A stretch of 64,000 nt of DNA from an uncultured Bacteroidales bacterium (GTDB taxonomy: Bacteria; Bacteroidota; Bacteroidia; Bacteroidales; UBA932), in the NCBI GenBank assembly GCA_944323785.1, contig CALUTU010000005.1, positions 39,319 through 103,318 of the forward strand. The letters run 5' to 3'. Made by a program: the position numbers and the translations under genes. This document shows, one piece after another, positions 49,849 through 58,845 of this stretch (positions are counted from its first letter, which is position 1; each line of letters begins with the position of its first letter). The notes under the pieces are model-generated. The model was not told the DNA's origin. It worked only from the letters and a program-made list of their open reading frames with translations, and searched no databases.

Positions 49849-50592
49849 ATGCGAAAGTGCGTTATTTTAATTTTTGCAGTGCTTGTTGGCCAGATGCTGA
49901 GTGCTCAGGACTTTGAGTACAGCTGGCAGCGTGTCAGGATGGACTCCGCCTATGAGAGCGATACCGTCTATGGCGTGGACAGCATAGTCGCCGCACATCA
50001 GGAGCAGATGACTCCACTCATGGAAGTGGTGATATATTCCTCGGAGGAGATAAAGGAAGGTAGACCCGAGAGCGCCCTGTCCAATCTGGCTGCCGACATG
50101 CTGCTATATGCCGTTTCCGACCGTCTGAACAACGGCTATCCGTCCATGTCCCTTACCAATTTCGGCGGCATACGCAGTAATTTCCCCAAGGGAGCAGTCA
50201 GGGTGTATGACATATATTCCACTTTCCCGTTTGACAACACTGTCGTGGTCGCGGTAATGGAAGGAGAGGACATCCGCCGTATTCTGGAGCGTTTCGCTTC
50301 CGGTAAGTTCGAAGCTTTAGGCGGGGTGGAGATAGTAGTGCGTGACGGAGAACTGGAGAAATGCCTGATAGGCGGCCGGCCGTTGGAGGATGACGCTCTG
50401 TACAATCTGGTGACCATCGATTTTCTGCTGGACGGGGGAGACCGTTTCGATATCGGAGACGACGCCGTGTCCATAGACCGTACTGGCATCGTACTGCGGG
50501 ATGCCGCCGTACGGTATCTGCGTGACCTTTCCGAGTCAGGCATAGTCCTGGAGAACAAGGGTGACGGACGTGTAATCATAGAAAAGGACTGA
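49849..50592 (+). CDS. 5'-nucleotidase C-terminal (substrate-binding) domain protein
   Basis: 247-aa ORF with a signal peptide. UshA C-domain-like sequence (…NFGGIRSNFPKGAV…DFLLDGGDRF…). Confidence 0.8.
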   Translation: MRKCVILIFAVLVGQMLSAQDFEYSWQRVRMDSAYESDTVYGVDSIVAAHQEQMTPLMEVVIYSSEEIKEGRPESALSNLAADMLLYAVSDRLNNGYPSMSLTNFGGIRSNFPKGAVRVYDIYSTFPFDNTVVVAVMEGEDIRRILERFASGKFEALGGVEIVVRDGELEKCLIGGRPLEDDALYNLVTIDFLLDGGDRFDIGDDAVSIDRTGIVLRDAAVRYLRDLSESGIVLENKGDGRVIIEKD

Positions 50593-50596
50593 CATT

Positions 50597-51442
50597 ATGA
50601 AGATAAGAAGCAAATCCATATCGGCAGCGTTCGTGCTGCTTCTGCTTGTCTCCGTTCCCGCCCTTACGGCTCAGGATCTGGTGATACTCCATACCAATGA
50701 CACCCATTCCCAGATAGAGGAGATACGAGTCGGCCGTGGTGCGGGTGCAGGAGGCGTACACCGCCGCGCCGAGTATTTTCACCAGGTGATATCGCAGTAT
50801 GGCCGGGACCGCGTCCTGCTGCTTGATGCCGGAGACTACAACCAGGGCACACCGTATTTTACGGTCTTCAAGGGAGACCTGGAGATGGAACTGATGAATG
50901 CCCTCGGATACGAGGTAGTGGCCATCGGCAACCATGAGTTTGACAACGGAGTGAACGAGTTTGCCAGACGGCTTTCAAAGGCGGAGTTCCAGACAGTCTG
51001 CGCCAACTATGACTTCTCAGGTACTGCTCTGGAGCCTTATGTAAAACCGTATACTATCGTGTATAAGAACGGCCGCAAGATAGGCGTCTTCGGCCTGTTG
51101 GCCAACATTAAGTCGCTTGTTGCCAAACAGAACCGGGAAGGATTGGTCTATATTGACGCTTATGAGGCCGCTCAGAGATGGGCTGACTATCTCAAGAACG
51201 AGGAGCACTGCGACCTGGTAATCGCCCTGTCACATCTGGGTTATTCGGGCTATCCCAATCAGCGCACGGACATCAACCTGGCCAGGAACACCCGCAACAT
51301 AGACGTCATCATCGGCGGCCACAGTCACACATTCCTGAAATCCGAGAAGATCTACCCCAATCTAGACGGTGAGGACGTGATCATCGTCCAGGCCGGAGCT
51401 CAGGGCGAATACGTCGGCCGCCTCGACATCACATTCGACTGA
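50597..51442 (+). CDS. Metallophosphoesterase (5'-nucleotidase N-terminal catalytic domain)
   Basis: 281-aa ORF with a signal peptide. Motifs HTNDTHS, DAGD, GNHEFD and GGHSH. Confidence 0.85.
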   Translation: MKIRSKSISAAFVLLLLVSVPALTAQDLVILHTNDTHSQIEEIRVGRGAGAGGVHRRAEYFHQVISQYGRDRVLLLDAGDYNQGTPYFTVFKGDLEMELMNALGYEVVAIGNHEFDNGVNEFARRLSKAEFQTVCANYDFSGTALEPYVKPYTIVYKNGRKIGVFGLLANIKSLVAKQNREGLVYIDAYEAAQRWADYLKNEEHCDLVIALSHLGYSGYPNQRTDINLARNTRNIDVIIGGHSHTFLKSEKIYPNLDGEDVIIVQAGAQGEYVGRLDITFD

Positions 51443-51508
51443 CCCCCTCCACCCTCCTCACATCCCCTACCTCCCCCCACAGAAAGACTCACAGTCTCCA
51501 CCCCCGGT

Positions 51509-51553
51509 GGGGAAAGTGCCGGGAATTTCCGCGAAAACGGTGCACTTTCCCCC
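51509..51553. repeat. R1 45-nt hairpin, inverted copy
   Basis: GGGGAAAGTGCCGGGAATTTCCGCGAAAACGGTGCACTTTCCCCC. This is the reverse complement of the 37433 copy with 1 mismatch. Confidence 0.9.
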
Positions 51554-51564
51554 GTGTGGTGAAA

Positions 51565-51670
51565 ATGAAAATCCGGCAACGAGAAAAGACTAGCCGCCCT
51601 CGGCTCTAGAGGGAGGGGCCCGCCGCAAAGCGGTGGGAGGGCCTGGTCTTTTCGACTGCTGGATTTTCAT
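51565..51670. repeat. R2 long imperfect palindrome, inverted copy 3
   Basis: Reverse complement of the 36297-36404 family with a few substitutions. It is followed (51671-51722) by the inverted 'tail' homologous to 36247-36296. Confidence 0.9.
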
Positions 51671-51855
51671 TAAAATGGGCGCAGGTGTACCGGTGTGGCT
51701 GGATTTCGGTTCACCTGCGGTGTGCCTGTGGCGTGTGTTAATTCCAGACAGGGATAGGGCGTGTCCAGGGATCAGGAGGTTACGCTGCCAGTAGGCATAG
51801 TGTATGTACACGGCAGCAGATAAGAGGGCAGATACGCCTGAGCCGGAAGACCTGA

Positions 51856-53019
51856 CTAGGCGTAGTGTATGTCCACGACCTTGCCGATGGCCTTGAGACT
51901 GGACGCAAGACGCTCAATCAGTTTAAGCTTCAGTGTGGTGTCTATGGGCAGCCCCTCATGGGCCTTGTTGACACCCTGGCCTACGAAGAAGGTGATGTGG
52001 GTGGCATTCTCAAGCAGCATCTGAGCCAGGAGCGAGGCTCCGTCCTGTTTTGTGAACATCTTGGGGGTCAAATCATTGGGCGAAATGTACTTTTCAGTAA
52101 GCTCCAACAGGCGGCGCAGTGTTATCACTCCCTCGGTCGTCAGGTCTATCCCGTCGATGTGACCGATGGGCGGAACTTCCTTGTCAGGAAAGTCCAGGCT
52201 CGTCGTGACCTTCTTGCCCAGATAACGGGCGACAATCTGGGAGCTGGTGCCTCCGCAGACCACTTTCTTGCTGTCGCCCTCCATGAACTTGGCCACGTAG
52301 TAGTCGTCGTTCTCCTTGTTGACCGGCGGGCCCACCATCAGGTTGACGTGCAGGGCCTCGCGCATCTTCAGGGCAGCCACCGTGGTGTCATCGCCCGGCT
52401 TGTCCATGTACAGGTCATTGCAGGCGGCAGCCAGCAGCCAGGCCACGCAGCGGGCCGACATCTCCGGCCGGATATTGCGGTCCATATGCTCCATGATGTC
52501 CTTGCGGTCCCAGCCGAAATTGAGCACACGGCCTATACCGGCGTGTATCGTACCGTCCGACATCACCAGCACGATATCCCCGTCGCACAGATTGATTTCC
52601 GAATGATACACCTTCTTGCCCAGGACATCCAAAGGCTTGCGGTCAAAATCCACACAGTGTCCCTCATGGTAATATACTGCCTGAGGATTGTCGAATTCAA
52701 AAAGATATCCATGACCGGAAGCATCCACGTGTATGACAGAAAATGTCGAATACGCCACCCCACGCACCTTGCACACCGGCAAAGTCTGGATCATGGTCTC
52801 GATGCAGTCCTCGATGGGGATGTTGTTGGCCACCATCGTACACAGTATCTTCGAGGAAAGCGTAGACAGAATGTTGGCCTTTACGCCGCTGCCCAGCCCG
52901 TCAGCCAGCACCAGGGTCGTATAGCCGTCCACAGTGACGCTCTCCACCTTGTCTCCGCAGAGCTCTTCCCCGAACTTGTTCAGGGACACATAGCCGTACT
53001 CTATAAACAACTCTTTCAT
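51856..53019 (-). CDS. SpoIIE/PP2C-family serine phosphatase
   Basis: 387-aa ORF. N-terminal PP2C-like core has GDKVESV...LVLADGLGSGVKANILS and ...MSDGTIHAG. The longer antisense ORF (51865-53073) is H/L/V/G-rich junk. Confidence 0.85.
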   Translation of the reverse strand: MKELFIEYGYVSLNKFGEELCGDKVESVTVDGYTTLVLADGLGSGVKANILSTLSSKILCTMVANNIPIEDCIETMIQTLPVCKVRGVAYSTFSVIHVDASGHGYLFEFDNPQAVYYHEGHCVDFDRKPLDVLGKKVYHSEINLCDGDIVLVMSDGTIHAGIGRVLNFGWDRKDIMEHMDRNIRPEMSARCVAWLLAAACNDLYMDKPGDDTTVAALKMREALHVNLMVGPPVNKENDDYYVAKFMEGDSKKVVCGGTSSQIVARYLGKKVTTSLDFPDKEVPPIGHIDGIDLTTEGVITLRRLLELTEKYISPNDLTPKMFTKQDGASLLAQMLLENATHITFFVGQGVNKAHEGLPIDTTLKLKLIERLASSLKAIGKVVDIHYA

Positions 53020-53029
53020 AGGCCGCGGA

Positions 53030-54784
53030 TTATGACTTTTCTGAGCGTTCCCTCTCCTCTTCCTCCTGCATGAGAGTCTTCTTCAGTTTCAGCAAGGCGA
53101 CTTTCGTCTCGGCCGTGGTCTCACCGAGAAGCGAGGCTATCTCCTGCGCCACTCTCATCTGCTTCTTGATTACATCATCTGTAGTGGCCAAAGTCTCCAT
53201 CCTCATCTTTCCGAACTTCTCGTTGTAGTGAACCTCGTCAGTGATATCCTTGAGGATGCCGAACAGCGCATGGTTCCCTTTCAGGATGCTGATGGACATC
53301 TCTATGTGGCGTTTCGTCTCAGCCACGTATATCTTCTTGCGCACGTACTGGCGGCCGGAATTCTGAGCGATAAGGAACTCGGTAGGGTTGAAAAAGTCTA
53401 TGGCCGGAAGCCCCTTGAGATTGACAGCAGTAATGCCCAGCAGTTCCTTGGCCTTACTGTTGATATCCACCACATTCATATCACTGTCCAGCACCACGAT
53501 GCCCTCCGGACTGTTATGGATGATCTCATAGGACATGGACTCGGCCCTCTCACGCATATACGGCAGACAGATGTCTATGTCCGCATAACCGTTGAACACA
53601 GCCCAGGCCTTCTCCCTGCAGGTAGGATAACCGCAAGAGCCGCAGTTGAGCTCATCCTCCGGCTTGAACTTGCCGGTACGGTGGAGAATCTCCTCTATCT
53701 GCTCCTGCGTAGGAGTCATGCTCCTGCCCTCTATCCTGGGATAGGCCGCCGAGATATCCACATCGTAAGACCTGTCCCCCTCCTGCTCACGCGGCAGCGC
53801 GGCACACTCCTCCCTGACATACCTCTTCACCTCTACTGCCGCCCGGACCTCCTCTCCGTCATCCACCATGCTGCACGGTCCGCTCACACAGGCATTCTCG
53901 CACATATTCATCTCAAAGAACACCCCGGTGACCTTGTCGATGTTCTCCAGCGTGTTCACACAGTTCTGCGGCCCGTCCACCGCGACGTAATCGTATCCCG
54001 ACGGGCGGCTCTCGAACGAATGGATGATGCCGCGGCGTATCGGATAGGACTTGCTCCTGTTGGCTACCCCGTCACCGGTAATACCCGTGCATGAGAATGC
54101 CTCGAACTCGTCCACCGCATCCGGCAGAGGGAATGTCACGCCCCGCTCAATCATAAAGCGCCGCAGGTCTTCGAAAGTCAGCACACCGCTGATAAGACCG
54201 CTTTCACGGGCTTCGCGCTTCTTCGCTATACACGGCCCGATGAAAACCACCTTGCATCCTGGAAAACGCTGCCGGAGTATCTTCGCATGGGCGATCATAG
54301 GAGAATCCACCGGAGCCAGATACTTCAAGGCATTGGGATGATACTCCTGTATAAGACGGCACAAAGCCGGACAGGCGGAGGTAATGAAGTTGGGGAAATC
54401 CCCTGAAGCCATGCACCTGGCATACTCCTTCGTCACCGCATTTGCCCCCACCGCCGTCTCCTCCGCATACGCGAAACCCAGCTTGTACAGGACCGTCTCC
54501 ATCTGGGCGAAATTCTTCAGGCGGAAAGACGATATGAACGAAGGCGCCACGCTGGCCACGACCTTGTCATTGTCCAGAAGCAGACTGTCCACCTCGTCCT
54601 TCTCACTGTGAACAATCTTGGCGTTCTGAGGGCATACTACTGTGCAGCGACCGCAGAGGATACACCGTTCCTTGATGATCTGCGCCTGATGGTTCTTGAC
54701 TTCAATCGCCTTTACAGGACACTCTCTCAAGCATTTATAACAATCCTTGCAACGGGCTTTCTTAAACTCGAGGTACTCTTTCAT
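53030..54784 (-). CDS. Sensory-type [FeFe]-hydrogenase-like protein (2x[4Fe-4S] + H-cluster domain + Cys4 + PAS)
   Basis: 584-aa ORF. Ferredoxin motifs CKDCYKCLRECP and CILCGRCTVVCP. H-domain motifs TSACP, GPCIAKKRE and MCENACVSGP. Extra Cys cluster CGSCGYPTC...C. C-terminal PAS (SPEGIVVLDSDMNVVDINSKAKELLG). Confidence 0.85.
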   Translation of the reverse strand: MKEYLEFKKARCKDCYKCLRECPVKAIEVKNHQAQIIKERCILCGRCTVVCPQNAKIVHSEKDEVDSLLLDNDKVVASVAPSFISSFRLKNFAQMETVLYKLGFAYAEETAVGANAVTKEYARCMASGDFPNFITSACPALCRLIQEYHPNALKYLAPVDSPMIAHAKILRQRFPGCKVVFIGPCIAKKREARESGLISGVLTFEDLRRFMIERGVTFPLPDAVDEFEAFSCTGITGDGVANRSKSYPIRRGIIHSFESRPSGYDYVAVDGPQNCVNTLENIDKVTGVFFEMNMCENACVSGPCSMVDDGEEVRAAVEVKRYVREECAALPREQEGDRSYDVDISAAYPRIEGRSMTPTQEQIEEILHRTGKFKPEDELNCGSCGYPTCREKAWAVFNGYADIDICLPYMRERAESMSYEIIHNSPEGIVVLDSDMNVVDINSKAKELLGITAVNLKGLPAIDFFNPTEFLIAQNSGRQYVRKKIYVAETKRHIEMSISILKGNHALFGILKDITDEVHYNEKFGKMRMETLATTDDVIKKQMRVAQEIASLLGETTAETKVALLKLKKTLMQEEEERERSEKS

Positions 54785-54806
54785 AAGTCTGGTTTATGTT
54801 GTCACA

Positions 54807-55091
54807 TCACTTTTCAGGAGCAGGAAGTCCCAGTTTGGGATACACCTCGCTGAGGAACTTCTGCTCCACATTGTCCTTGTTGACTCCCCTTATAAACACG
54901 TCCTCGGAACCGTCCAGAGACTCCTCGGCACGCATCACCACTCCGTCCGCGCACTGTCCGAAACAGAAACTTGCCTGAAGCTCCACCAGTTCCTCCACAT
55001 CGTACTTCTTGAGGATATCCCTCATACCCTGCACCACATCGTAGGAGCCCTTCAGATGGCATGAGCTGCCTATGCATATCTTCACTATCAT
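54807..55091 (-). CDS. Thioredoxin-like [2Fe-2S] ferredoxin domain protein (NuoE/HydC-like)
   Basis: 94-aa ORF with a Cx4C...Cx3C pattern (CIGSSC ... CFGQC). ATGA overlap with the pepP stop. Confidence 0.75.
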   Translation of the reverse strand: MIVKICIGSSCHLKGSYDVVQGMRDILKKYDVEELVELQASFCFGQCADGVVMRAEESLDGSEDVFIRGVNKDNVEQKFLSEVYPKLGLPAPEK

Positions 55092-56476
55092 CGCATCGCC
55101 TCCACCTCGTCAGCCGTAATAGGCAGATATTTGCCCAGACGGCGGTTGCCATTGTCCAGTATCATGTAATCCCGCTCTATCCTGAAGCCGCCGAAATCCC
55201 TGAACTTCTCTATCTCGTCGTAATTCAGGAAATCCTTGAACTTGCCGGTACTCCTCCACAAGTCTATCAACTCGGGGATAAAATAGATACCCGGCTCAAT
55301 GGTCAGCACGTAACCGGGCTCCAGTTCTCTGGCCAGACGCAGGGACTTGAGACCGAACTTTGTACTTCTCGGATGACCGTCATATCCTACCCAGGCCTCT
55401 CCGAGAGCCTCCATGTCATGCACGTCAAGGCCCAGCATATGACCGAGGCCGTTGGGGAAGAACAGGGCATGGGCTCCCTCCTGTACAGCCTCGTGTACAT
55501 TGCCTTTCATAAGACCCACACTCTTGAGATCTTCTGCCATCACCTCACATGCCCTCATATGCACATCCAGGAAAGGCACTCCGGGCCTGAGGGCCTCCAC
55601 TGCGGCCGTATGGGCGTGAAGCACTATGTCGTATATCATCCTCTGCCTATCGGTAAACCGCTTGCCTACAGGCGCAGTGGCTGATATGTCACCGGAATAG
55701 TGCATCCTGTTCTCAGCACCGGCGTTAAGAAGGAAAAGGTCGCCCTCCTGCATGATATTGCCGTACCAGTGATTGTTCAGTATCTGACCGTCAACCGTGG
55801 CTATTACCGGAAACGCCAGACCTATACCTTTTCTCAGCGCGATACCGGTAACCACGGAGACCACCTCCTTCTCCGACATGCCAGGATGTATCATGCTGAT
55901 CATGGCCAGATTCATGTCTGAGGATATGTTGACCGCATCCTCTATCTCCATTATCTCCTCGGGGGACTTGTGGCTCCTGAGGCTGATCACCGCCTTGATA
56001 AACGGTATCGACACACTGTCGTCAAATGCCCCGCCCGGCAGCCCTGCCAGATTGAACATCTTGACATAATGCCGTCCCCTGTAAGGAGGCAGGAAATGCA
56101 CCATCCGGCCCTTGTGCTCAGCCTTCATGAGCAGGGACCTGAGCTCGTCCATGGACCCCGTATGCTCCACGCCTGCCCTACTGCACAGTTCCCTTACAGG
56201 CAGGCTTCCCTTCCATACGATATTGTCTATGGTCAATTCATCTGTATATACGGACACCTTGCCGTCCTCCATGTCGATAAGGGCCGCAAGACCCGGAAAA
56301 TCAAGGCCGAAGAAATACAGGAACGTAGAATCCTGACGAAAAGGATAGGGATTGCCCGCATAATTCATACCGGACTCGTCATTGCCAAGGAACAGCAGAA
56401 GCCCGGACTGGTGGAGCCTCCTCATCTCTTCCACGAGAGCGGCTCTCCTTTCTATATAAGTCTCTTTTGAAAACAT
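55088..56476 (-). CDS. pepP: Xaa-Pro aminopeptidase (M24B)
   Basis: M24 metal-ligand region HGLGHMLGLDVHD and an N-terminal creatinase-like domain. Start set at MFSKETY (56476) because the upstream ATG falls in the -7 box. Confidence 0.88.
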   Translation of the reverse strand: MFSKETYIERRAALVEEMRRLHQSGLLLFLGNDESGMNYAGNPYPFRQDSTFLYFFGLDFPGLAALIDMEDGKVSVYTDELTIDNIVWKGSLPVRELCSRAGVEHTGSMDELRSLLMKAEHKGRMVHFLPPYRGRHYVKMFNLAGLPGGAFDDSVSIPFIKAVISLRSHKSPEEIMEIEDAVNISSDMNLAMISMIHPGMSEKEVVSVVTGIALRKGIGLAFPVIATVDGQILNNHWYGNIMQEGDLFLLNAGAENRMHYSGDISATAPVGKRFTDRQRMIYDIVLHAHTAAVEALRPGVPFLDVHMRACEVMAEDLKSVGLMKGNVHEAVQEGAHALFFPNGLGHMLGLDVHDMEALGEAWVGYDGHPRSTKFGLKSLRLARELEPGYVLTIEPGIYFIPELIDLWRSTGKFKDFLNYDEIEKFRDFGGFRIERDYMILDNGNRRLGKYLPITADEVEAMR

Positions 56477-56503: not shown

Positions 56504-56511
56504 CAAATTTA
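56504..56511 (-). promoter_or_regulatory. -7 box TAAATTTG (pepP / hydrogenase-like sensor operon)
   Basis: TAnnTTTG on the minus strand, 28 nt upstream of the ATG at 56476. Confidence 0.55.
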
Positions 56512-56607: not shown

Positions 56608-58845
56608 ATGAGACATATTACTGCATTCACACTGTTCTTCACGCTGGCGGCCATGGCGGCATACACTACTACGGCCCAGAGCGGCAGGCTCACACTGGAA
56701 GACATATACAAAAACCACGAATACGCGGCAAAAGGCATCACAGCCTTCAGATGGACCGATGACGGCCACTCGTTCCTGACCCTGGAGAAAGACTCAGCGA
56801 CAAACGGACAGAATCTGGTCCTCAACGACATCAGAACCGGAGAGAAGACTATCGCCGTAGCTGCGTCAAGTCTCATTCCAGAAGGATGCGGAAATCCATT
56901 GCCAATAGACGGATACAGTTGGTCGGCAGACCACTCCATGCTGCTGATATACACCAACTCCCAACGTGTGTGGAGGACAGCCAAAAGAGGCGACTACTGG
57001 CTCTACATACCCGCTTCCGGAGAGTTGCGCCAACTGGGACGGTCTGACTTCGAGCCTGCATCGATGCAGTTCGCCAAGTTCTCTCCCGACGGGACAATGA
57101 TCGCCTACGTATATAAGAACAACCTGTTCGTGGAAAGCCTGGCCGACGGTTCCGTGCGCCAGCTTACCTTCGACGGCAGCGATGAGATCATCAACGGACA
57201 GTTCGACTGGGTCTATGAGGAGGAGCTGCACCAGCAGGACGGCTGGCGCTGGAGTCCCGACAGCCGCAGCATCGCATACTGGCAGTTCGACACCCGCGGT
57301 ACGGGCACATTCTATATGATAGACAACATCGACTCGGTATATTCCACTGTCATTCCACTGCCCTATCCCAAAGCCGGCACCACCAACTCCGCTGCCCGTA
57401 TCGGCGTAGTGGACGTGGACATTGACGGGCCTCAGACCCGCTGGCTGGCCATTCCCGGAGATCCAAGAGACAATTACCTGGCCCGGATGGAGTTCGTTCC
57501 GGGTACTGACAGACTGATGATCCAGCAGCTCAACCGCCTGCAGAACACAGACAAAGTCTACTACGCTGACATAAGAACCATGGAGCTTGACAATTTCATG
57601 ACCGAGACCGACGAGGCATTTCTCGACGTCCACGACGACATAGTCTGGCTGAACAACGGAAAACACTTCACCTGGACCAGCGAACGGGACGGATGGAGAC
57701 ACCTCTACAGAATATCCAGTGACGGCAGCGAAGTCTCCCTCATCACCAAAGGAGACTTTGATGTCATAGATGTGGTGAGAATCGACCCTGAGAGCGGATG
57801 GGTGTACTACATCGCATCTCCGGACAGCCCGGTAGACAGATATCTCTACCGCAGTCGCCTGGACGGCCGTGGCAAGACCGAGCGGATTACTCCAGCCGAC
57901 GCGCCCGCAGGCCATCACGGTTACATGATATCCCCCGATGCCAAGTACGCCATGCACACCTTCAGCAACAGCGAGACCCCTACCGTCTACGAGATAGTCA
58001 CGCTGCCCGGACACAAGACTGTCCGCACCCTGGAGGACAACCATGAACTGGCAGAGAGATTCGCCGCCGTCAACCCCGGGGCCAAGGAATTTTTCCGGGT
58101 GGACATCGGCGACGTGGTACTGGACGGATGGATGATCAAGCCAACCGGATTCGACTCCACCGCAAAATACCCGGTCATCTTCTACATCTACGGCGAGCCC
58201 TGGCAGTCCACAGTCCAGAACTCTTGGAGCGGAGGCGATCTGTGGAGCCGCTTCCTGGCACAGGAAGGCTACATCGTCATGAGCATCGACCCGCGCGGAG
58301 TGGCCACACCGAGAGGCCGCGAGTGGCGCAAATGCGTCTACGGCAAAGTCGGCATCATACCGCCGGCGGACCATGCGGCAGCCGTGACCAAACTCCTTCA
58401 GACCTACAGCTTCATGGACCCGGACCGTATCGGCATCTGGGGCTGGAGCGGAGGAGGCTCGTCCACCGCACATCTGATGTTCAAATACCCCTCTATCTAC
58501 TCAACAGGGATAGCCGTGGCCGGAGTATATTCCCAGTACCTCTACGACACCATTTACCAGGAAAGGTACATGGGGCTGCCCTCCACCAATCCGCAGGGAT
58601 TCCATGACGGCTCTCCCATCAATTTCGCATCCGGACTGAAAGGCGACCTGCTGCTGATTCACGGCACGGGAGACGACAATGTCCACTACCAGAGCTGCGA
58701 GATGCTGGTCAACGAGCTCATCCGCCAGAACAAGATGTTCGACATGCTCTCCTACCCCATGCGCTCGCACAGCATCAACGAGAGGGAGAACACCACATAC
58801 CACCTCTATCAGTATATGTTCAGATACTGGGAGGAACACTTATAA
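56608..58845 (+). CDS. Dipeptidyl-peptidase IV (S9B prolyl peptidase)
   Basis: 745-aa ORF with a signal peptide and N-terminal beta-propeller. Catalytic Ser motif GIWGWSGGG, followed by GTGDDNVH. Confidence 0.92.
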   Translation: MRHITAFTLFFTLAAMAAYTTTAQSGRLTLEDIYKNHEYAAKGITAFRWTDDGHSFLTLEKDSATNGQNLVLNDIRTGEKTIAVAASSLIPEGCGNPLPIDGYSWSADHSMLLIYTNSQRVWRTAKRGDYWLYIPASGELRQLGRSDFEPASMQFAKFSPDGTMIAYVYKNNLFVESLADGSVRQLTFDGSDEIINGQFDWVYEEELHQQDGWRWSPDSRSIAYWQFDTRGTGTFYMIDNIDSVYSTVIPLPYPKAGTTNSAARIGVVDVDIDGPQTRWLAIPGDPRDNYLARMEFVPGTDRLMIQQLNRLQNTDKVYYADIRTMELDNFMTETDEAFLDVHDDIVWLNNGKHFTWTSERDGWRHLYRISSDGSEVSLITKGDFDVIDVVRIDPESGWVYYIASPDSPVDRYLYRSRLDGRGKTERITPADAPAGHHGYMISPDAKYAMHTFSNSETPTVYEIVTLPGHKTVRTLEDNHELAERFAAVNPGAKEFFRVDIGDVVLDGWMIKPTGFDSTAKYPVIFYIYGEPWQSTVQNSWSGGDLWSRFLAQEGYIVMSIDPRGVATPRGREWRKCVYGKVGIIPPADHAAAVTKLLQTYSFMDPDRIGIWGWSGGGSSTAHLMFKYPSIYSTGIAVAGVYSQYLYDTIYQERYMGLPSTNPQGFHDGSPINFASGLKGDLLLIHGTGDDNVHYQSCEMLVNELIRQNKMFDMLSYPMRSHSINERENTTYHLYQYMFRYWEEHL

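Follow-up and report, generated by a model that had tools for sequence, protein, structure and literature searches.

What does a hydrogenase-like protein with a sensory domain respond to, and what does it control, when the neighboring gene codes for a protein phosphatase? This question is raised by a locus in an uncultured Bacteroidales bacterium (GCA_944323785.1) for which homolog searches gave 'Candidatus Coprenecus' and other uncultured Bacteroidales as the closest named relatives. Fermentation in the gut and rumen is steered by the partial pressure of hydrogen. The switch is believed to be a class of putative sensory [FeFe]-hydrogenases, whose phosphatase has as yet no identified target (PMC13104023, PMC12578642). 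We analyzed a window of 64,000 nucleotides (positions 39319-103318 of contig C5) together with the rest of the genome assembly, which comprises 1.97 Mb in 36 contigs and is 87% complete. On the minus strand the window contains a gene for a 94-residue [2Fe-2S] protein, a gene for a 584-residue [FeFe]-hydrogenase-like protein (HydS), and a gene for a 387-residue PP2C phosphatase. We are confident that these three genes are a sensor module of group C, of the type called hfsABC in Thermoanaerobacterium.

The module lies in a cluster of four closely packed minus-strand open reading frames (ORFs), for an M24 peptidase and then the 94-, 584- and 387-residue proteins. The 94-residue protein, a thioredoxin-like [2Fe-2S] ferredoxin in the HfsA position, is encoded at 54807-55091; the HydS/HfsB-type putative sensory hydrogenase, of group C (M2f), at 53030-54784; and the HfsC-type SpoIIE/PP2C phosphatase at 51856-53019, after an intergenic gap of 11 nt. 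A first-pass annotation made from the sequence had placed the three ORFs at these coordinates and had quoted active-site motifs, all of which are present in the translation. It had also described two ferredoxin motifs, an H-cluster domain, an extra four-cysteine cluster and a PAS domain in HydS, and searches of Pfam and NCBIfam bear this out. The two ferredoxin-type [4Fe-4S] motifs, each of the form CxxCxxCxxxCP (54620-54763; residues 8-55, with C12/15/18/22 and C41/44/47/51) match Fer4 families, and the H-cluster domain (53876-54565; residues 74-303) matches Fe_hyd_lg_C (PF02906, E = 4.6e-38). They are followed by the extra Cys4 motif of [4Fe-4S] type (53561-53650; residues 379-408; PF04060 FeS, E = 5e-10), which reads CGSCGYPTC...C and consists of C381, C384, C389 and C406, and by the PAS domain (53216-53530; residues 419-523), which matches PF00989 (E = 4.4e-07) and TIGR00229 sensory_box as well as PAS_8, PAS_9 and PAS_4. 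The protein closes with a conserved helical tail (53069-53197; residues 530-572; …QEIASLLGETTAETKVALLKLKK).

The three motifs of the H-cluster domain are FITSACPALC, FIGPCIAKKRE and FFEMNMCENACVSGPC, the last of which contains EMNMCENAC. The four cysteine ligands of the H-cluster (C138, C185, C295 and C299) are invariant in an alignment of 14 sequences with identities as low as 26%. HydS has A137, G183 and N293 in the second sphere, where the catalytic enzyme CpI has C299, M353 and M497. The equivalent residues of TmHydS, the sensory hydrogenase of Thermotoga maritima, are A131, G177 and S267, and these positions define what has been called the 'sensory' pocket (PMC10055695). In the L1 motif TSACP (54368-54382; residues 135-139) the proton-relay cysteine is replaced by alanine, as the first-pass annotation had recognized, but it had assigned the loss to the wrong member of the TSCCP pair: the missing residue is the first cysteine (C299 in CpI), and the second one, C138, is retained as a cluster ligand. 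By its sequence, then, HydS keeps every residue needed for the H-cluster and three accessory [4Fe-4S] clusters, and is without the proton-relay cysteine and the two methionines of fast catalytic enzymes.

The assignment to group C, already proposed in the first-pass annotation, agrees with the PAS domain, a feature that separates group C from group D, with profile scores and with phylogeny. HydS fails the curated NCBIfam models TIGR02512 and TIGR04105: against a cut-off of 406 for the group A model of this set it reaches 57.8 bits, and against one of 450 for the group B1 model it reaches 163.6 bits. The genome's paralogs, taken as controls, do pass: HydA reaches 526 with the group A model and 907 with the A6 model, and a 493-residue hydrogenase from contig C10 reaches 508 with B1. 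An enzyme encoded at the hfsD position in a relative scores 529 on B1. In a maximum likelihood tree built on 385 alignment columns from 34 H-domain proteins, where groups are labeled by domain content and NCBIfam score and TmHydS, TamHydS, CpI and the HydDB references stand outside the sample, HydS falls within a clade of PAS-bearing proteins (support 100/98) that includes homologs from Ruminococcus. This clade is apart from a catalytic clade of groups A and B (99/96) and from a clade of PAS-less, group D-like proteins (100/100). The Protein Data Bank (PDB) has no group C or group D structure, and the top sequence match there is a Desulfovibrio enzyme at 59 bits.

These results also bear on whether HydS could be a hydrogenase subunit that is slow yet has a catalytic role in physiology, with the phosphatase as an unrelated or accessory regulator. 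In Thermoanaerobacterium, hfs was recognized at first as the principal locus for H2 evolution (PMC11837493), and TmHydS keeps measurable activity (PMC10055695), both of which suit such a role. However, the proton-relay cysteine and both methionines are replaced in HydS, and deletion of hfsB raises hydrogenase activity, the catalytic role belonging to hfsD (PMC5707799, PMC11837493). There is no hfsD gene 3' of the phosphatase in our genome, which encodes separate catalytic enzymes elsewhere. We consider a catalytic role quite improbable.

Homologs number in the thousands, and the match of motifs and domains is well past what chance would give. Using an alignment of HydS, with one genome taken per species, we found 596 relatives, and we compared gene order at the best 80 of these 596 loci. 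Four of the 80 are on contigs that stop within 360 nt of HydS (<=360 nt), leaving 76 loci that are informative about the gene downstream; a PP2C gene lies directly 3' of HydS in all 76. A homolog of the [2Fe-2S] protein is immediately upstream in 77 of the 80. The HydS–PP2C loci span Bacteroidales, Clostridia (including Ruminococcus and Christensenella), Selenomonadales and Anaerolineae; the Ruminococcus homologs are about 40% identical to this HydS, belong to the same clade, and show the same order of 2Fe2S, HydS, PP2C and hydrogenase genes. Starting from the phosphatase instead, we found a HydS-like gene just upstream in 27 of the 29 loci fetched, so the association of PAS-bearing HydS with PP2C, on which the first-pass annotation had relied, is kept in related genomes. 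A full-length phosphatase homolog occurs in 82 of a sample of 201 Bacteroidales genomes. Comparison with orthologs from three congeners gave dN/dS ratios of 0.03-0.05 for all three module genes (0.04-0.05 for the [2Fe-2S] gene), values that are rough because dS is near saturation. From phylum to phylum the three genes stay together almost without exception, and purifying selection on them is strong.

In the tree, HydS proteins from Bacteroidales, ours among them, are nested among Clostridia sequences (97/97), and some Clostridia HydS proteins are 55-58% identical to it, as close as many Bacteroidales copies (L061, L075, L081, L099, L103). This nesting and similarity suggest that the module has been transferred between the phyla to which Bacteroidales and Clostridia belong.

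In most loci related to this one the module has a fourth member: a group B-type hydrogenase gene, in the position of hfsD, lies 3' of the phosphatase in 58 of the 80 loci, and HydCBA genes do so in at least 2. The fourth gene is absent from the window and from the congeneric loci (L057-L059 and L016-L018). Its place is taken by 410 nt of non-coding DNA, followed by a convergent phosphoesterase gene; this is the site where relatives have the group B hydrogenase gene. A TBLASTN search of positions 51300-52000 with two group B hydrogenases for a remnant of the gene gave chance matches only (E > 3), and a search of the 410-nt gap for structured RNAs found no Rfam family at E < 0.1. It contains a weak terminator-like hairpin (51592-51605, minus strand) about 250 nt past the phosphatase stop codon. 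The only group B enzyme in the genome is the 493-residue protein on C10, which is unlinked to the module and falls in another group B subclade than the enzymes at the hfsD position. It is encoded by a monocistronic gene (C10:20650-22131), has the motifs TSCCP, GPCIAKRKE and EMMVCPDGC, and has cell-envelope genes as neighbors (patatin/BamA-like, flippase, MurF and glycosyltransferase genes), with no regulator nearby. The locus is the hfsABC part of a well-known four-gene operon, without the fourth gene.

Loss of the fourth gene could mean that the remaining three are a decaying, functionless leftover of an hfsABCD operon, and the missing hydrogenase gene and the non-coding stretch after the phosphatase are what such decay would leave. 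This reading is contradicted by the selection analysis: the three congeners used for the dN/dS estimates of 0.03-0.05 likewise have no fourth gene, and the ligand and catalytic residues of the module are all intact. We give almost no credence to decay. That the sensor–phosphatase pair has been under such strong selection after the dedicated hydrogenase gene left the operon argues against this hydrogenase being its only target.

The region beyond the non-coding stretch differs among close relatives. Positions 49849-51442 of the window hold a gene for a 5'-nucleotidase C-terminal domain protein and the calcineurin-like phosphoesterase gene, convergent to the phosphatase gene, whereas the congeners carry HHH_3 and TP_methylase genes there; the DNA 3' of the module has thus undergone rearrangement. 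We also found a second, paralogous HydS–phosphatase pair that is common in Bacteroidales (most of loci L027-L053, plus L054:13855-15774 and L055:15519-17408). Its HydS is 24-30% identical to the one described here and its phosphatase 30-35%. The second HydS has the L1 motif ISSKCP, with lysine at the proton-relay position, and an insert of about 35 residues, a coiled coil, before the PAS domain. The pair is often followed by a hydrogenase of the group B subtype to which the orphan C10 enzyme belongs.

If the module is a sensor, its signal could be either H2 or the general redox state of the cell. As a redox sensor, the HydS domain with its four Fe-S clusters and the small ferredoxin would report how reduced the ferredoxin or NAD(H) pool is. 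The phosphatase would relay this, and the PAS domain may have a ligand of its own. The 94-residue protein has the cysteine pattern C6-x4-C11-x31-C43-x3-C47 and matches the thioredoxin-like 2Fe-2S family PF01257 with E = 6.7e-05 (23.2 bits, just below the Pfam cut-off of 24.8); that so many loci keep this dedicated [2Fe-2S] partner fits a redox function, as does the persistence of strong selection on the module here though the linked hydrogenase gene has gone. The PAS domain has been described as possibly redox-responsive in the hfs literature (PMC11837493). On the other hand, all four H-cluster ligands are invariant in the clade and the genome maintains the costly maturases HydE and HydF (on contig C2) and HydG (on C17), while an H-cluster is required only for reaction with H2. 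TmHydS itself binds H2 and turns it over (PMC10055695). A redox sensor is thus unlikely in our view, and we lean towards H2 as the signal.

The phosphatase has two domains. Its SpoIIE/RsbU-type PP2C domain (52357-53019, minus strand; residues 1-221; PF07228) gives a Pfam SpoIIE match of 2.7e-12 over residues 31-219 and has all the PP2C metal-binding motifs (CGD23, D40-G-x-G-S-G, SDG156 and DD211), with the metal-binding aspartates D23, D40 and D211 invariant among homologs. The structural model of the protein (pLDDT 92) has the SpoIIE/RsbU/RsbX fold in residues 1-221, and its Foldseek matches include 3pu9 (4e-15) and SpoIIE, 5mqh (4e-14). The rest of the protein is an alpha/beta C-terminal domain (51859-52356, minus strand; residues 222-387), modeled with a pLDDT of 92.8, which contains the motifs CGGTS, PP, GIDLTTEG and VG..N.AH. 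Residues 222-387 match no Pfam family, and the domain has no structural match in PDB at E <= 0.001; its best structural likeness is weak, to methylglyoxal-synthase-like or flavodoxin-like folds (TM <= 0.53). The idea that it might mimic a STAS-like or DRTGG-like substrate was rejected for want of any Pfam hit or PDB match, and a profile–profile alignment with DRTGG gave a probability of 0.3%. TBLASTN searches of the rest of the genome with either domain of the phosphatase, PP2C or C-terminal, and with the PAS/tail region of HydS found no paralogs. Full-length homologs of the phosphatase form a family of 416 representatives at E <= 1e-30, nearly all of them 380-400 residues long, and in the same relatives the phosphatase is better conserved (about 70% identity) than HydS (about 60%).

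The pattern of conservation within HydS points to a candidate for the element that meets the phosphatase. Conservation is lowest in the PAS domain, and the Cys4 module, with 11 of 30 positions invariant, is among the best conserved parts, as is the C-terminal helix (QEIASLLGE...). Residues V538, Q547, I549, L552, L553, G554, E555 and L564 of the tail are invariant in the 14-sequence alignment. The helical tail is a candidate contact or signal-output element, and this helix and the C-terminal domain of the phosphatase would be the obvious candidates for a contact between the two proteins.

On what could the phosphatase act? The first-pass annotation had reported no catalytic hydrogenase, maturase or kinase in the window, which is right, but the rest of the genome does encode maturases, catalytic hydrogenases and a candidate kinase. 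Beyond the maturases, four proteins with the Fe_hyd_lg_C domain are encoded: HydS, the C10 group B enzyme, and two proteins from contig C6, namely a HydA of the bifurcating type, accompanied by HydB and HydC, and a sensor-like protein of 451 residues. The C6 genes form a cluster of ten outside the window (C6:58416-66716, minus strand), in the order DRTGG protein (114 residues), RsbW-like HATPase_c_2 kinase (136 residues; C6:65960-66370), group D-like sensor (451 residues), DRTGG protein (111 residues), PHP protein, GHKL ATPase, small 2Fe-2S-like protein, HydB, HydA and HydC. The group D-like sensor has no PAS domain, but has the motif SSFCP and a Cys4 tail.

Searches for signaling proteins across the genome found exactly one SpoIIE-type PP2C, the phosphatase of the module, and exactly one HATPase_c_2 protein above cut-off, the C6 kinase; the two are on different contigs. 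Both of the genome's DRTGG proteins are in the C6 cluster, and they have a common invariant motif, SDL[ML]SDV. The genome-wide search that the first-pass annotation had proposed thus recovered HydEFG and catalytic hydrogenases but no STAS substrates of the phosphatase: neither STAS (PF01740) nor STAS_2 (PF13466) was found, an absence that falls short of proof because the genome is 87% complete, and within the same 87% no Hanks kinase was found. The genome is unusually simple for the question at hand, having one PP2C, one RsbW-like kinase, two DRTGG proteins and three hydrogenase loci. Because of this small signaling inventory, the candidate substrates and partners are narrowed to a handful that can be tested in vitro.

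Co-occurrence across genomes supports, short of proof, a pairing of the phosphatase with this kinase. Among the 145 of the 201 Bacteroidales genomes that encode [FeFe]-hydrogenase domains, 56 have both the phosphatase and the kinase, 26 the phosphatase only, 7 the kinase only, and 56 neither, in a table that we counted by hand from related genomes that are not independent. In three genomes (G170, G159 and G077) the HydS–phosphatase genes adjoin a cluster of kinase, group D and HydABC genes, and share its strand in G170. Kinase and group D-like sensor genes also adjoin the module in L089 and L090. A 17-kb locus, L055 (G159:C1:64000-83000), holds two HydCBA sets, a kinase/group D/DRTGG/PHP cluster and convergent 2Fe2S-HydS-PP2C genes, and is the most complete version in a single place among the loci we examined. 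That the RsbW-like C6 protein is the kinase opposing the phosphatase is, to us, an evenly balanced proposition.

The best explanation of the whole, which we consider reasonably likely, is an H2-sensing hfsABC module with an RsbW-like kinase as its partner. H2 would bind and slowly turn over at the H-cluster of HydS, as work on TmHydS and the genetics of hfs and of R. albus suggest, and the small ferredoxin may act as a redox partner of HydS. From the Cys4 module, the redox or conformational state of the protein would be relayed by way of the PAS domain and then the helical tail until it reaches the phosphatase. The phosphatase would in turn alter the Ser/Thr phosphorylation state of a protein that regulates fermentation flux and the enzymes that produce hydrogen, opposed by the RsbW-like GHKL kinase on C6. 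Apart from the kinase, this follows the model already published for group C enzymes, in which H2 is reported by an H-cluster tuned for slow, biased turnover. If this protein is the kinase, it follows that the controlled enzymes would be the bifurcating HydABC, the orphan group B hydrogenase, or both.

Several points weigh against this explanation. The function of HydS and of its homologs in Bacteroidales is inferred; H2 sensing is called 'putative' even for TmHydS, and the C-terminal cluster of a group D enzyme showed no response to H2 (PMC13104023). The classes in our tree are named from domain architecture and NCBIfam scores rather than from named HydDB references, and 13% of the genome is missing. 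A close homolog of the kinase is lacking in 26 of the 82 genomes that have the phosphatase, so the pairing of the two is not obligatory, and their co-occurrence may be inflated by shared ancestry and a shared hydrogen-based lifestyle. Neither the module nor the C6 cluster holds a transcription factor, a STAS protein or another recognized output. No STAS protein was found, which leaves the missing 13% of the genome as the only place where a STAS substrate could be encoded. The first-pass annotation had described the output of the phosphatase as unidentified, in agreement with the literature of 2026 (PMC13104023).

With no STAS protein in view, the two DRTGG proteins are, as a hypothesis, the most economical substrate candidates. 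A single phospho-switch could then operate without STAS proteins: the one kinase and the one PP2C would act on the DRTGG proteins, the two hydrogenase-derived sensors would set these opposing activities, and DRTGG phosphorylation would tune HydABC, the group B hydrogenase or both post-translationally. We regard this switch as a speculative proposal that is more probably wrong than right by a wide measure, and the literature we searched contains no link between DRTGG proteins and hydrogen sensing. If it is true, this genome would offer a minimal system in which the output of sensory [FeFe]-hydrogenases, sought for so long, can be named.

The fourth ORF of the cluster codes for a pepP-like Xaa-Pro aminopeptidase of family M24 (55088-56476, minus strand), and its stop codon overlaps the start codon of the [2Fe-2S] gene (ATGA); because of this overlap, pepP is probably co-transcribed with the module in this lineage. 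A Bacteroidetes-type -7 box, TAAATTTG (consensus TAnnTTTG; 56504-56511, minus strand), lies 5' of the peptidase gene and is the sole such box on the strand of the cluster. The TTG at 56506 given as a start in the ORF list belongs to this box, so the peptidase gene probably starts with the ATG at position 56476. Divergent from the aminopeptidase gene is one for DPP-IV (56608-58845). We considered whether the aminopeptidase is a conserved member of the module and rejected this: an M24 gene lies upstream of the module in only 3 of the 80 loci (and also in L014-L017). These 3 are all close relatives, and we treat the adjacency of pepP as a lineage-specific fusion.

Earlier publications cover the class of protein as well as its architecture, substitutions and phosphatase partner, and this copy is an ordinary, well conserved one that adds no new principle. 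Three features set it apart: the gene at the hfsD position is lost, the operon is fused to pepP, and the signaling inventory of the genome is very small. The nearest known system is the hfs operon of Thermoanaerobacterium saccharolyticum and T. thermosaccharolyticum, where genetic analysis of hfsB and hfsC has been carried out and which has the same order of a small protein, a PAS-bearing [FeFe]-hydrogenase-like protein and a serine phosphatase (PMC5707799, PMC11837493). This likeness rests on gene order, the Thermoanaerobacterium proteins lying outside the loci that we compared. An hfsD-like group B hydrogenase gene follows in 58 relatives' loci but not here or in the congeners, and here pepP is fused upstream instead. 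HfsA has been described as unlike known proteins, whereas its counterpart in the window is a thioredoxin-like 2Fe-2S ferredoxin.

TmHydS, of group C (M2f), has the same domain order as our HydS, with two [4Fe-4S] clusters, the H-domain, the Cys4 motif and the PAS domain (PMC10055695, PMC13104023). The two proteins have the same alanine at the position of C299 in CpI and the same glycine at that of M353, but TmHydS has serine at the position of M497 where ours has asparagine. The TmHydS gene is part of a HydABC operon, whereas this HydS gene is unlinked to any hydrogenase. The HydS cluster of Ruminococcus albus 7, described together with its phosphatase subunit, likewise combines an H-cluster and PAS sensor with a Ser/Thr phosphatase (PMC6776011). 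It also includes adhE, along with a ferredoxin-only hydrogenase that is its presumed target, and no such genes adjoin the copy studied here.

Two further systems offer comparisons. The RsbU/RsbV/RsbW and SpoIIE/SpoIIAA/SpoIIAB systems use the same PP2C fold, and the sole candidate partner kinase in our genome is RsbW-like; in contrast to those systems, we found no STAS antagonist here, the kinase and phosphatase are on different contigs, and the phosphatase carries a C-terminal domain that RsbU and SpoIIE do not have. TamHydS of Thermoanaerobacter mathranii, of group D (M2e), is the counterpart not of the HydS in the window but of the 451-residue C6 sensor, which is likewise located upstream of a bifurcating HydABC and beside a histidine-kinase-like ATPase (PMC8163306). 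The C6 sensor is probably the second half of the signaling system to which HydS and its phosphatase belong.

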